Assembly (NCBI GenBank): GCA_026026165.1
Contig: JAPEUD010000005.1
Span: forward strand, 62,001-126,000
Length of the DNA stretch: 64,000 bases
Source: Sarea resinae
Lineage: Eukaryota
Reading direction: 5' to 3'
Position numbers and translations under genes: made by a program. The notes under the pieces are model-generated. The model was not told the origin of the DNA. It did not search any database and saw only the letters and a program-made list of their open reading frames with translations. Below, in pieces: positions 13,511 to 23,780 of the stretch (the stretch's first letter is position 1; the number at the start of each line of letters is the position of its first letter).

Positions 13511-14532
13511 TTAGGCACTGTCCAGGGGTGCTGGATGGCCACTACAGCGTCGGGCTGCCTCGACGCCATCCAAGGGCGCTGGATGGCCACTACAGCGTCG
13601 GGCTGCCTCGACGCCAAACGAGGGCGCTGGATGGCCACTACAGCGTCGGGCTGCCTCGACGCCATCCAAGGGCGCTGGATGGCCACTACAGCGTCGGGCT
13701 GCCTCGACGCCAAACGAGGGCGCTGGATGGCCACTACAGCGTCGGGCTGCCTCGACGCCATCCAAAGGCGCTGGATGGCCACTACAGCGTCGGGCTGCCT
13801 TGACGCCATCCAAGGGCGCTGGATGGCCGCTGGAGGAGTGAGCTGTAGAAATACTGGCATCATCGGTTGTGGTGTGTTTGAACCTCCAAGCGGCTTCCAC
13901 GATAGGGCTCGAGTTTGGGCTCGTTGATGCCGCAAGCGGCACCATGAGACTGTTGCGGCCCATGGTGATTTCAATCAGGTCGCTTGAACCAGGCGCATCT
14001 TGATCATCTGCGAGTGCTATGCCCAAGAGGTCGATAAGCTCATGTTCCTTGAGAGTCTCGGCGAGGTCGTTGATAAAGTCGTTGGAGAAACTGACTGGGT
14101 CTGGCTTGACTTCGCCGTTGCTAGGCACATATTTAAACTCAAAAGGTTGCACTTCATTCTTGTATATGCGCCAGGACTTTGGCAGGATATGACCCGCCTC
14201 GACGGTATCCTGCGTAGCAGGCACTGGCCAAGGCCTTTGCATTGGACCGTATTCAACAAGCCTCTCGTCTTCGGTCATGTCGAAATGGCGGTGCAAGAGT
14301 TGGAGAACCAAGGACTTGGTCATACCGTGGCGGATAAAGACGTCTCTGTAAAACATTAATGATGATCCCCGTTTTGAAATAGCAGATAATCCTACCTGAT
14401 GCAAGATTGAATGTATTTGGAGCCATCTCTATCAGCTAAAGATCGAGTAGCATCGTAGAGATCTGGTAGAGTATCGTATGCCATACGATCATATGGGGCT
14501 GAGCCCCGGGTCTCAACAGCGACGGTGGCCAT
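13511..14532 (-). CDS. Putative fused enzyme-precursor protein: uncharacterised HRHF-motif domain plus C-terminal 16-aa tandem repeats (323 aa; exons 14532-14396, 14345-13511)
   Basis: ATG at 14532 (MATVAVETRG...YDTLPDL...IQSCIR). A 50-nt GTAGG...TACAG intron (14395-14346) joins in frame to DVFIRHG...LLHRHF...PKSW...PFEF...EITMGR...VEAAWRF, followed by seven SGHPAP units. TATAAATA lies ~100 bp upstream. The gene model is well supported; the function is inferred. Confidence 0.85.
13521..13831. repeat. Coding 48-bp tandem repeat, ~6.5 copies
   Basis: CTGGATGGCC recurs at 13531, 13579, 13627, 13675, 13723, 13771 and 13819. Two variants encode PLDG or PSFG. Confidence 0.97.
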
Positions 14533-14632
14533 GACGTGAGTAGATTTTGGCTGAAAATTAGTCTGGAAAATTGGAAGATTCCTTTGTCTTGACAAAAATG
14601 AAAAAAAGGCAGGCTCGAGTAGGTCCAGGCCC

Positions 14633-22000: not shown

Positions 22001-23780
22001 GCATTCAGACACTTTGTTTTGCCATGTTAGTAATACTTCGGATTTTCTGCCTGCAATATCCTCGTAAGTGACTCCGTCCCCGATAAGATTTCCTTCTCAT
22101 CCGACGTGATTAGAAGTCTGGCTCCTCCGATGGGCACGAGCGAACCAGGCATCTCCAGGGAGGGACAAAGGCATGTATTTTGGCGTATACGCCATATTCG
22201 CCGTTGCGGGCTTATTCTTCGTCGGTTCCTCTATATGGCTGATGTTTATCGTCAACGTCCCCCGCTCGGCGAACCGGCTACACTCGTATCTCCTCGACGC
22301 TGTAATGAACGCCCCCTATCTGTTCCACTCGTCGACCGACTCAGGAGTAACGCTCAACAGGTTCAGCCAGGACATGTCGCTGATAGACTCTCAGCTCCCA
22401 GCGGCATTTCAGCAAACATCAGTGGCGGTGGCTGTCGCAATCGGCGGGGGCATCCTGATCGCAGCTGGTTCTAAGTTCATGGCAGTAACAATCCCATTTT
22501 GCCTTCTCATTCTGTACGTTCTGCAGAAATTTTATCTTCGACTTTCTCGTCAGGTAAGTCGCAAGATCATGCGGGTCTCCAAGCTGCACTGCTTAAGCTG
22601 TAAATAGATTCGCCTGATGGACCTCGAAGCGAAATCGCCCCTATTCACTCACTTCACCGACACCAATCATGGATTGCACACAATACGAGCGTTTGGTTGG
22701 CAGACCCGACACGTCGAGCGCTGTCTCGAGTTACTCGATCGTTCCCAGCAACCAGCGTATCTACTTCTCTGCATCCAGCGATGGTTAGGCTTGGCCTTAG
22801 ACCTACTGATCATGGGTCTAGCCGTGGTCTTAGTCTCGCTGGTCGTGGGACTGAGCGGCAGCACGAGCGGCAGCTCAATCGGCGTTGCACTAATCAACAT
22901 CCTCGGCTTCAATCAGACGCTCGCGACTGCAATTACCTCGTATACGGCTCTGGAAACGTCCATCGGAGCCATTGTGCGAACGAAAAATTTCGTCGCAGAG
23001 ACGACGCCGGAATCGAACCCACCACCATCGCCATGGCGAACCTCTTCATCGGACTGGCCCTCGCGTGGAGAGATCGAGTTGCGCGACGTCAACGTGGCCT
23101 ACTCACCCACCGAGCCCTTGGTACTCCGTGACTTCAATCTCGTCGTCCCAGCCGGCCACAAGGTCGCTATCTGCGGCCGATCCGGGTGCGGGAAATCCTC
23201 CCTGGTGCTCCTCCTCGCGCGTCTGTTGGACTGCAGCTCGGCTGGCGTCGTTAGCATCGACGGCGTCCCGATCGGTGAGCGGACGCGCGAGACCGTCCGG
23301 TCCGCCCTGACGATCTTGCCCCAGGACCTCGTCGTGATCCCCGGCACCGTGCGCGAGAACGTCGACCCGTCGGGCACGAGATCCGATGGCGAGATCGTGG
23401 CGGCTTTGTGCAATGTCGGGCTAGCCCATGTTGCGTCCTCTGAACAGGCGCTGAATATGGCGGTCGAGAAGGTGCCGCTTTCCAGGGGCCAGAGACAACT
23501 GTTCGCGCTCGCGTCTGCTTCTCTTCGGGAGAGCAAAGTCGTCATCTTAGATGAAGCCACGAGCCATCTTGATGCAGAGAGCGAGCAGGTTGTCAAGGAC
23601 CTCGTCTTGGGCAAGTGGAGGCACAGCACCGTTCTCGCTGTGGTGCATCGTCTAGCAGCCGTTGTCGATTACTATGACATGGTGGCTGTCATAGATGCCG
23701 GACGCGTGGTCGAGTATGGCGATCCGAGAGAGCTGATGGCGCAAGAGGGCAGCTGGTTCGGGGCTTTGTGGAATGCTTGA
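19081..23780 (+). CDS. ABCC (MRP-type) full-length ABC transporter, multi-exon
   Basis: N-terminus NDNTFGP...CRGGFDFTFLFEQ and EHRRSVRPS typical of fungal ABCC exporters. NBD1 has GPSGSGKS, LSGGQRQR, ILILDNPLSGLD. TMD2 has LNRFSQDM and DLEAKSPLF. NBD2 has GRSGCGKSS, LSRGQRQL, ILDEATS, VHRL. Confidence 0.95.

Follow-up and report, generated by a model that had tools for sequence, protein, structure and literature searches.

What is the function of a fungal protein that carries, behind a conserved domain, its own string of near-identical cassettes containing cysteine and histidine? This question is raised by a gene at positions 13511-14532, on the minus strand, of a 64,000-nucleotide stretch of contig JAPEUD010000005.1 from Sarea resinae, a resin-dwelling fungus; the whole stretch is called the window below. 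The product of 323 amino acids (aa) joins a domain of ~205 aa to six tandem cassettes, and its gene is adjacent to those of a methyltransferase and two transporters. We found this protein architecture to be real, unusual and uncharacterised. The interpretation that we favour, with a probability of about 0.4, is that of a cis-acting metal-site domain with multiple copies of a Cys/His substrate cassette, i.e., a self-processing fused precursor akin to those of peptides that are made by the ribosome and modified after translation (RiPPs). For the locus as a whole, a RiPP interpretation is plausible.

The repeat-tailed protein and its relatives

The gene has two exons. Exon 1 (14396..14532, minus strand, with the ATG at 14532-14530) was read from the sequence and encodes residues 1-46, while exon 2 (13511..14345, minus strand) encodes the remainder of the ~205-aa domain, including H64, H66, E115, E171 and W199, as well as the cassette tail and the stop codon. 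Removal of the 50-nucleotide GT..AG intron between them (14346..14395, minus strand) yields exactly the deposited 323-aa protein P0002, named "MAG: hypothetical protein M1819_004851 [Sarea resinae]" (MAG, metagenome-assembled genome). In a tblastn search with P0002, residues 1-46 and 46-212 fall on exon 1 and exon 2, respectively, the former at 14532-14395 with 100% identity. The first exon of a relative from a second locus (L002, described below), MSTAAV..IRTVIR, is homologous to exon 1 and is followed by stop codons, and the N-terminal YD..A.D.L motif of exon 1 is common to P0007, P0010, P0013 and P0019.

Tandem Repeats Finder located the array at 13521..13828 on the minus strand, with a period of 48 nucleotides, 6.4 copies, 93% matches and a score of 546. 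It encodes six 16-aa cassettes with the consensus.GVeAARRCSGHPAP.. and is continuous in frame with the upstream non-repetitive region of ~200 codons. The resulting tail consists of six RRCSGHPAP cassettes (..GVEAARRCSGHPAP..) with a Cys-to-Cys spacing of exactly 16 residues. A first-pass annotation of this DNA had described a repeat-tailed, precursor-like protein that has no signal peptide and whose fused domain it did not recognise as a methyltransferase, BURP or DUF3328 domain. The six-cassette array in an open two-exon frame, identical to a deposited protein, bears out the first part of this description, and the Pfam scans gave no match to any of the three domain types. The N-terminus is not hydrophobic, the best 15-residue Kyte-Doolittle mean within the first 40 residues being -0.09 by a crude measure that is no signal-peptide predictor; this agrees with the absence of a signal peptide, and the protein is probably cytosolic. 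Directly downstream of the gene, at 12062-12716 and 13300-13420, lie microsatellite-like arrays (AGC-rich, AGGTA x6.8 and TTTC x12) and a GA-rich stretch.

The domain belongs to a large family. A phmmer search of 1.84 billion representative sequences, with the 168-aa non-repetitive part of exon 2 as the query, returned 362 matches at E ≤ 1e-3, 110 at E ≤ 1e-10 and 4 at E ≤ 1e-30, mostly of 170-260 aa. The names of 20 members were looked up, and every one returned was "hypothetical" or "uncharacterized". All named source organisms are fungal (Aspergillus, Diaporthe, Morchella, Glutinoglossum, a Caloplaca MAG and the basidiomycete Tilletia), and the nearest Atlas clusters (Pfam 38.1) are 90-97% eukaryotic, mostly from Ascomycota, and have no Pfam family in common. 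A pattern scan of 185,579 prokaryotic species genomes, the reach of which is limited by the patterns, gave 20 stretches that fit the pattern and no relative. The family is apparently restricted to fungi. Its members have strongly diverged, as reflected by whole-protein identities to P0002 of 21-39%.

Across 114 aligned members, conservation reaches at least 90% in the columns of H64, H66, V76, P84, W85, P113, E115, F136, G154, E171 and W199. The window protein has all of H64, H66, P84, W85, P113, E115, G154, E171 and W199, which places it in this HxH/E/E family, marked by a near-invariant H-x-H, two Glu, P-W and W-x-F. An AF2 model of the window protein based on the 114 sequences contains 168 residues with a predicted local distance difference test score (pLDDT) of at least 90 and has a predicted template-modelling score (pTM) of 0.72; for the short member P0046, the mean pLDDT is 92.3 and the pTM 0.87. 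The modelled domain is an alpha/beta domain of ~200 aa in which H64-x-H66, E115 and E171 are residues of the metal-ligand type.

We found no counterpart of the ~205-aa domain in the Pfam copy used. A profile search of the PDB reached an E value of 0.19 at best, and Foldseek returned 0 PDB matches at E ≤ 0.001 for the models of both the window protein and P0046. The best VIA-align results against 48,161 chains were Z scores of 2.6 (5ig9_A, root-mean-square deviation (rmsd) 5.4, 74 residues) and 2.4 (2qb5_A, rmsd 5.7, 89 residues). This lack of a structural match does not prove a new fold. The entry PF27520 is precomputed for P0005 alone and is absent from the Pfam copy used; some of these proteins may thus already be covered by name in a more recent Pfam release. 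In a full-text literature search, with subscription journals and supplements outside its scope, no paper was found on the domain family or on a fused fungal precursor with Cys/His repeats. Matches of the window protein to Anti-RecBCD_p2 (26 bits, the cut-off being 25, with no stretch passing alone) and to DNA_ligase_ZBD lie on the repeats and were read as repeat artefacts. Cupin, JAMM and cytidine-deaminase assignments were also discarded, as the spacings do not fit the motifs known for these families and no such fold was matched. In two longer family members, the domain is either fused to other sequence or merged with it in gene prediction: P0063 (650 aa, from the Caloplaca MAG) has a long N-terminal region in front of the domain, and P0034 (728 aa, Aspergillus fumigatus) has a long C-terminal region behind it. 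P0028 (258 aa) is the unfused form.

Most family members are ~210 aa long and end in a C-x2-3-C..H tail. At least two Cys follow the W-x-F strand in 103 of the 114 members; the window protein has six, one per cassette. Tail Cys are not universal, and P0017, P0023, P0043, P0054 and P0061, which lack them, retain H/H/E/E, indicating that the domain site is independent of the tail Cys. P0017, P0023, P0054 and P0061 form a Cys-less subclade with a common ending (..PVKK or ..PVRK), which may serve as a natural tail-less control.

A tree of the 114 members was computed from the domain columns only (LG+G4, quick search; the midpoint root serves for drawing only). The 12 members with cassettes of the form R-H-[GS]-x-C or R-x-C-x(1,2)-H were recovered as one clade (SH-aLRT support 98), in which P0003-5 are the sister group of the window protein (support 91). 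Homologues with C-terminal repeats, which the first-pass annotation had named as a check on its proposal, are thus found. Identity to the window protein within the clade is 29-39% over the whole protein and 40-49% over the domain. Copy number ranges from 1 to 17, with one single-cassette member and 2-17 copies in the others. The window protein has six copies around RRCSGH, and P0003, P0004 and P0005 share the cassette ARWCRH[SA]EP, with 9 copies in P0003 and 10 in P0004. P0013 has 15 copies of HGICAAK, and an open reading frame (ORF) at a further locus, L001, is nearly identical to it; P0019 has 10 copies of RHSLCVKN and P0007 has 7 of TRHGLCYKA. Four copies each are present in P0008 (RHGTCYAA, plus one in which Gly replaces Cys), P0009 (KHGLCINKSPHD) and P0011, the product of the L002 gene (TRHSVCIGSSKEE), while P0006 has two (LHG[TI]CSAAEGV) and P0010 a single RHGVC.

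Around the Cys, each protein has a block of 5-13 residues that does not change from copy to copy, and the linkers vary in sequence and length. Invariant cores are, for example, ARWCRHSEPVK (8 of 8 cassettes), ARWCRHAEP (10 of 10), HGICA (15 of 15) and GV.AARRCSGHPAP (6 of 6); the spacing from Cys to Cys is 15-20 residues in P0003 and P0004. The combination of invariant cores and drifting linkers suggests that the block of 5-13 residues is recognized, i.e., more than two ligand atoms. Where the rest of the family has a Cys-rich tail, the cassette clade has a series of near-identical cassettes, each with one Arg-flanked Cys and one His.

Structure prediction provides additional information on how a cassette might meet the domain. 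In the AF2 model based on the 114 sequences, cassette 243-250 of the window protein (VEAARRCS) is docked as a strand on the domain, with a pLDDT of 88 for the 241-250 block compared to 39-62 for neighbouring tail blocks. When ESMFold2 was run with no alignment, it positioned tail residues 226-260 on domain residues 1-212 with a score of 0.55, compared to 0.02 for the best of three controls; the verdict of the tool is "weak support", and its calibration contains no peptides, the chains here being two parts of one protein. In that calibration, 51 of 78 solved complexes and 2 of 108 mismatched pairs attained the mark; with scores of 0.60 or under, only 5 of those 78 complexes attained it, and so did all 4 passing mismatches (of 180). 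Contacts agreed to at least 77% among three runs, with a pLDDT of the partner of at least 48.

The four-gene group and a second locus

The repeat-tailed gene is part of a group of four adjacent genes in two divergent pairs, as the first-pass annotation had stated: the repeat-tailed gene (minus strand) with a methyltransferase gene (plus strand), and a major facilitator superfamily (MFS) gene (minus strand) with an ABCC transporter gene (plus strand). The repeat-tailed and methyltransferase genes are separated by an intergenic region of 1.15 kb (14533..15680), in which a 112-aa ORF (15105-15440, minus strand) has no Pfam match. The methyltransferase gene (15681..16628, plus strand) has two exons and an intron at ~15.85-15.91 kb, with approximate splice sites; the homologues P0157 (from Agyrium rufum, 300 aa) and P0156 can be aligned with both exons, over 15693/15699-16625. 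The S-adenosylmethionine (SAM) motif I EIGCGQG is located in exon 1 and assigns the product to the Rossmann-type class I SAM-dependent methyltransferases. Twelve homologues were found, among them proteins of four Xylographa species, Coniochaeta and Aulographum. In Pfam, P0157 matches Methyltransf_31, Methyltransf_23 and Methyltransf_25 with 30.4, 30.0 and 27.1 bits against a cut-off of 27, and the best match of the pieces from the window itself is CMAS at an E value of 0.0034. The nearest PDB entry is 3bkx, an uncharacterised SAM methyltransferase (9.2e-30). The deposited model P0155 (244 aa) covers the second exon only and lacks EIGCGQG. It is probably truncated, because P0157 and P0156 align from 15693/15699 onwards across an intron that contains two stop codons.

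Convergent with the methyltransferase gene, with 88 bp between the two stop codons, lies a gene of at least three exons (16716..18436, minus strand) that, judged by sequence features, probably encodes an MFS transporter. Its Atlas feature score to MFS_1 clusters is 0.98 (19 of 30 matches in that set; 79% of cluster members have MFS_1), and it is homologous to L002 ORFs that match MFS_1 with 31.3 and 22.6 bits, below the cut-off of 33.4. Pfam MFS_1 at an E value of 0.09 is the best that a piece of the window gene itself reached; phmmer gave no PDB match, and a homologue search on "longer" proteins returned none. The stretch GMLADRVGRKWIL resembles what we take to be MFS motif A. The first-pass annotation had called the methyltransferase and MFS genes ustM-like and ustT-like; the searches characterise the former as a generic class I enzyme and, by the Atlas, the latter as a generic MFS protein.

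The fourth gene (19081..23780, plus strand), divergent from the MFS gene and composed of several exons, encodes an ABCC transporter of the MRP/YCF1 type. Two ABC_tran matches (1.6e-23 and 4.8e-13) and ABC_membrane pieces identify it as a two-half ABCC protein. The piece with the second nucleotide-binding domain matches MRP1 (1.7e-74), ABCC2 (9.8e-74) and YCF1 (9e-63) in the PDB, the best matches covering residues 5-385 of the last exon. Since MRP1 and ABCC2 match better than YCF1, no particular substrate is indicated.

We read the four genes as a tightly packed group that is bounded by two housekeeping genes, namely those of a Metallophos phosphatase (10367-11419, plus strand, Pfam) and a PalB-type calpain (24878-26578, minus strand). 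The calpain gene, ~1.1 kb past the end of the ABCC gene, encodes the only peptidase near the four genes. Owing to its PalB_C domain (4.9e-41), we regard it as a pH-signalling housekeeping protease outside the group. A Pfam scan of the 158 stop-to-stop ORFs of at least 110 aa in the window, which heavily spliced genes with short exons could escape, revealed no polyketide synthase, non-ribosomal peptide synthetase, terpene synthase, DUF3328/UstYa protein, P450 or BURP domain; the first three had already been reported as missing. Elsewhere in the window, a copia-type reverse transcriptase fragment (53277-53711, plus strand, RVT_2 1.8e-11) is probably a retrotransposon relic.

In a metagenome scan, 420 stretches fit the patterns, of which 3 encode relatives. 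Long flanks are present in L002 only, L003 repeating part of it. L002 comprises 20.5 kb of a 137.9-kb metagenome contig, i.e., the relative with 10 kb on either side. The repeat-tailed relative P0011 (9989-10723, plus strand) is adjoined by a convergent MFS gene (11298-13171, minus strand), the product of which is 25-39% identical to the window MFS over all three window exons (tblastn, E values of 1e-9 to 2e-12). The other MFS of L002 (4953-6738, minus strand) gave no tblastn match to the window MFS at 1e-3. Beyond the adjacent MFS gene, ~4 kb from the relative, lies a multicopper oxidase gene (14717-16574, minus strand; Cu-oxidase, Cu-oxidase_2 and Cu-oxidase_3), and a fragment of a fungal transcription factor was found at 18881-19834.

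Precursor, metal-binding protein or chance expansion

If the protein is a self-processing precursor, the domain would hold a metal ion via H64, H66, E115 and E171 and would bind the cassettes singly, each as an additional beta-strand, with the Cys/His pair at the metal site. It would act on this cassette in cis, by oxidation or cross-linking of Cys or by cleavage beside the basic residue. The product would be the short Cys/His peptides of a multi-core precursor, possibly metal-binding, which would exit the cytosol through the neighbouring MFS transporter, and the methyltransferase and the ABCC protein may tailor or transport it. A hydrolytic variant, in which the tail would be cleaved next to the conserved basic residue in the manner of a zinc peptidase, is possible; zinc peptidases usually have two His and one Glu as ligands plus a catalytic Glu. 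The precursor interpretation is supported by signs that entire cassette cores are under selection, by the variation in copy number, the predicted docking of a cassette, the retention of the domain site without tail Cys, the divergence of the family, the linkage to a transporter and the close packing of the four genes. It can be extended to the whole family of at least 362 members, which would then be an unrecognised superfamily of autocatalytic peptide precursors, in which a metalloenzyme with a fold unmatched among solved structures modifies or cleaves its own C-terminal strand at the Cys (and His); in the Sarea clade, this would take a multi-core form that yields many copies of a short Cys/His-derived peptide, cross-linked or a metallophore, for export by an MFS partner. 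We consider this extension tentative and rather doubtful.

A number of observations weigh against a precursor. No protease gene or cleavage signal was found within the four-gene group, and the tail of the window protein has no KR (Kex2) site, RR preceding each Cys; Kex2 would not meet the protein in any case, because the latter does not appear to enter the secretory pathway. The two divergent promoters share 0 10-mers, compared to 2.5 in shuffles. L002 is the sole other locus with genomic context, and tblastn detected no homologue of the methyltransferase or of the ABCC transporter within 10 kb on either side of its relative. The shared neighbours in testable loci therefore amount to 1 of 1 for MFS, 0 of 1 for the methyltransferase and 0 of 1 for ABCC. 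The first-pass annotation had suggested that homologues might co-occur with all three: the part on the MFS holds for L002, whereas the methyltransferase and ABCC genes are tied to the repeat-tailed gene by adjacency alone. Its proposal of a new class of self-modifying peptides gains from the repeats in the homologues, but the missing protease or cleavage signal counts against it, as do the conserved Cys pair and the swapping of ligands to which we turn now.

These last two points belong to the alternative that survives best, a metal-binding protein that is never cleaved. Here, H-x-H, E115 and E171 would hold Zn, Cu or Fe together with a ligand pair of the tail, and the multiplied disordered tail would store, buffer or hand over metal. 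We regard this as possible, if on the unlikely side. The near-invariant polar residues of the family are all classical ligands: H, H, E and E of the domain, C191 and C195 of the tail and a following His. Cys makes up 7.4% of tail residues compared to 0.7% of domain residues. Of the 93 short-tailed members, 91 have C191 and 85 have C195, which makes this Cys pair near-invariant; its spacing is C-x3-C in 45 and C-x2-C in 30. A His follows the second Cys within at most 11 residues in 64 of 87 short-tailed members, and a basic residue precedes the first Cys by at most 3 residues in 59 of 87. The model of P0046 shows C191 in a strand of the tail (187-192, DRCHCR) that packs on the domain, with a pLDDT of ~88 for residues 181-190 and 71 for residues 191-200, where C195 is located. 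A Cys pair that is conserved like domain residues and a tail strand that is modelled into the fold fit a built-in ligand as well as a substrate. Furthermore, P0106 (Tilletia horrida, 399 aa) has two tandem domains with a separate C-x3-C..H segment behind each; one of these segments, the first, is internal, which would be odd for a releasable core. Among relatives, the ligand pair swaps between CxxxC, CxxH, CxH and HxxC. Metal ligands typically permute in this way, which is unusual for residues subject to a single fixed chemical modification. The YCF1 match of the ABCC piece, to a "metal resistance protein", the L002 multicopper oxidase and the lack of a protease or cleavage signal in the four-gene group point in the same direction. 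The MFS and the YCF1-like ABCC transporter would then form an island for the handling of metal or thiol conjugates and not a biosynthetic cluster, a proposal that we likewise hold with some doubt.

Other findings are difficult to reconcile with a role in metal binding alone. Chelation does not require that core residues other than the ligands stay invariant over up to 15 copies while the linkers drift. The domain accommodates one strand at once, which leaves 6-17 copies without an obvious structural role. H/H/E/E are retained in the members that have lost the tail Cys. A housekeeping metallochaperone would be expected to be more conserved than this strongly diverged family, for which 20 records returned no functional name, and the MRP1 and ABCC2 matches of the transporter exceed the one to YCF1.

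According to a second alternative, there is no functional cluster: the protein would be an enzyme or a binding protein of unrelated function, the C-terminal latch strand of which was expanded by replication slippage next to ordinary neighbours. An identity of 93% among the cassettes in DNA sequence implies that the expansion is recent or being homogenised, and copy number differs between the near-identical P0013 and L001 ORF. In addition, methyltransferase and ABCC genes are not conserved neighbours in L002, the promoters have no common motif, and MFS and ABC genes are plentiful in fungal genomes. We nevertheless consider this alternative unlikely. Repeat tails persist across a clade with identities of 29-39% to the window protein and their cores are invariant, which argues for selection and not for drift; moreover, the adjacent MFS of L002 specifically resembles the window MFS, and the other L002 MFS does not. 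It is most improbable that the gene is decaying or is an artefact of assembly or annotation, since both exons are open and identical to the deposited 323-aa model and independent relatives from other samples have the same architecture, even though the protein names indicate a metagenome-assembled genome, tandem repeats are prone to mis-assembly and the stretch is present in only one DNA run, which is maybe the source sample.

The precursor and metal-binding interpretations differ in what they would imply. Should the tail be modified or cleaved by the domain to which it is fused, the protein would represent a new class of self-processing precursors with unknown chemistry. If this holds for the whole family, it would be a new fungal RiPP class that is missed by mining rules requiring signal peptides, Kex2 sites or DUF3328. 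Should the tail do no more than bind metal, the family would be a new one of proteins that handle metal in fungi. Either way, a fungus-wide family with four invariant ligand-type residues, confident models, no match in the Pfam copy used or among solved structures and a cassette-amplified tail in one clade is a clear target for experiments.

Relation to known systems

For ribosomal peptide natural products of fungi, a 2025 paper (PMC12048977) lists only six classes. The lichen pipeline described there seeks signal peptides, Kex2 sites and tandem repeats, and the architecture of the window protein would escape it because signal peptides and Kex2 sites are required.

Among the classes in this list are the dikaritins (ustiloxin, phomopsin and asperipin). 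The locus resembles their clusters in its ascomycete origin, the tandem cores and the methyltransferase and MFS genes nearby. Dikaritin precursors, however, have a signal peptide and KR sites for Kex2, and their clusters encode DUF3328/UstYa oxidases. None of these three features was found here, as judged from the crude hydropathy measure, the tail and the 158 window ORFs, respectively. The locus is not a dikaritin cluster.

Two other systems combine enzyme and substrate in one protein. Borosins of the OphMA type, which appear in the reference list of PMC12048977, have an enzyme-like N-terminal domain with their own C-terminal core and no signal peptide, and their tail folds back, as is predicted here. 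Their domain is a SAM-dependent alpha-N-methyltransferase, whereas Pfam searches with P0001 and P0002 gave no methyltransferase match even at E ≤ 10, and the cores of the cassette clade are set by a Cys/His pair and tandemly multiplied. The BURP cyclases of the burpitides (PMC12186524) share with the window protein the fusion of a metal-dependent domain, which is putative in our case, to tandem cores, as well as an invariant core with variable linkers. They are plant proteins that depend on copper, cross-link aromatic residues and enter the secretory pathway with a C-terminal domain; here, the protein is fungal and the cassettes contain Cys and His. Pfam detected no BURP domain in P0001, P0002, P0003 and P0005. 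As the defining domains are absent, the window protein is neither a borosin nor a BURP cyclase.

The variable-length, disordered, Cys/His-rich tail on a domain with ligand-type residues is reminiscent of UreE, HypB, SlyD, Pra1 and proteins with metallothionein-like tails. The tails of these metallochaperones are compositionally biased, in contrast to the long invariant cassettes described here, and no relation of the window protein to a solved protein was found in sequence or fold. Finally, the bacterial MNIO/DUF692 systems, which produce methanobactin and bufferins (10.1101/2025.01.10.632315, PMC11252979), offer a parallel for a metal enzyme, as putatively encoded here, that acts on peptide Cys, and their products bind copper. 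They are bacterial, belong to an unrelated family and encode enzyme and substrate in separate genes, whereas both would be fused in the fungal protein. If the favoured interpretation of a self-processing precursor holds, its novelty would be that of a variant of the known idea of a fused enzyme and precursor.

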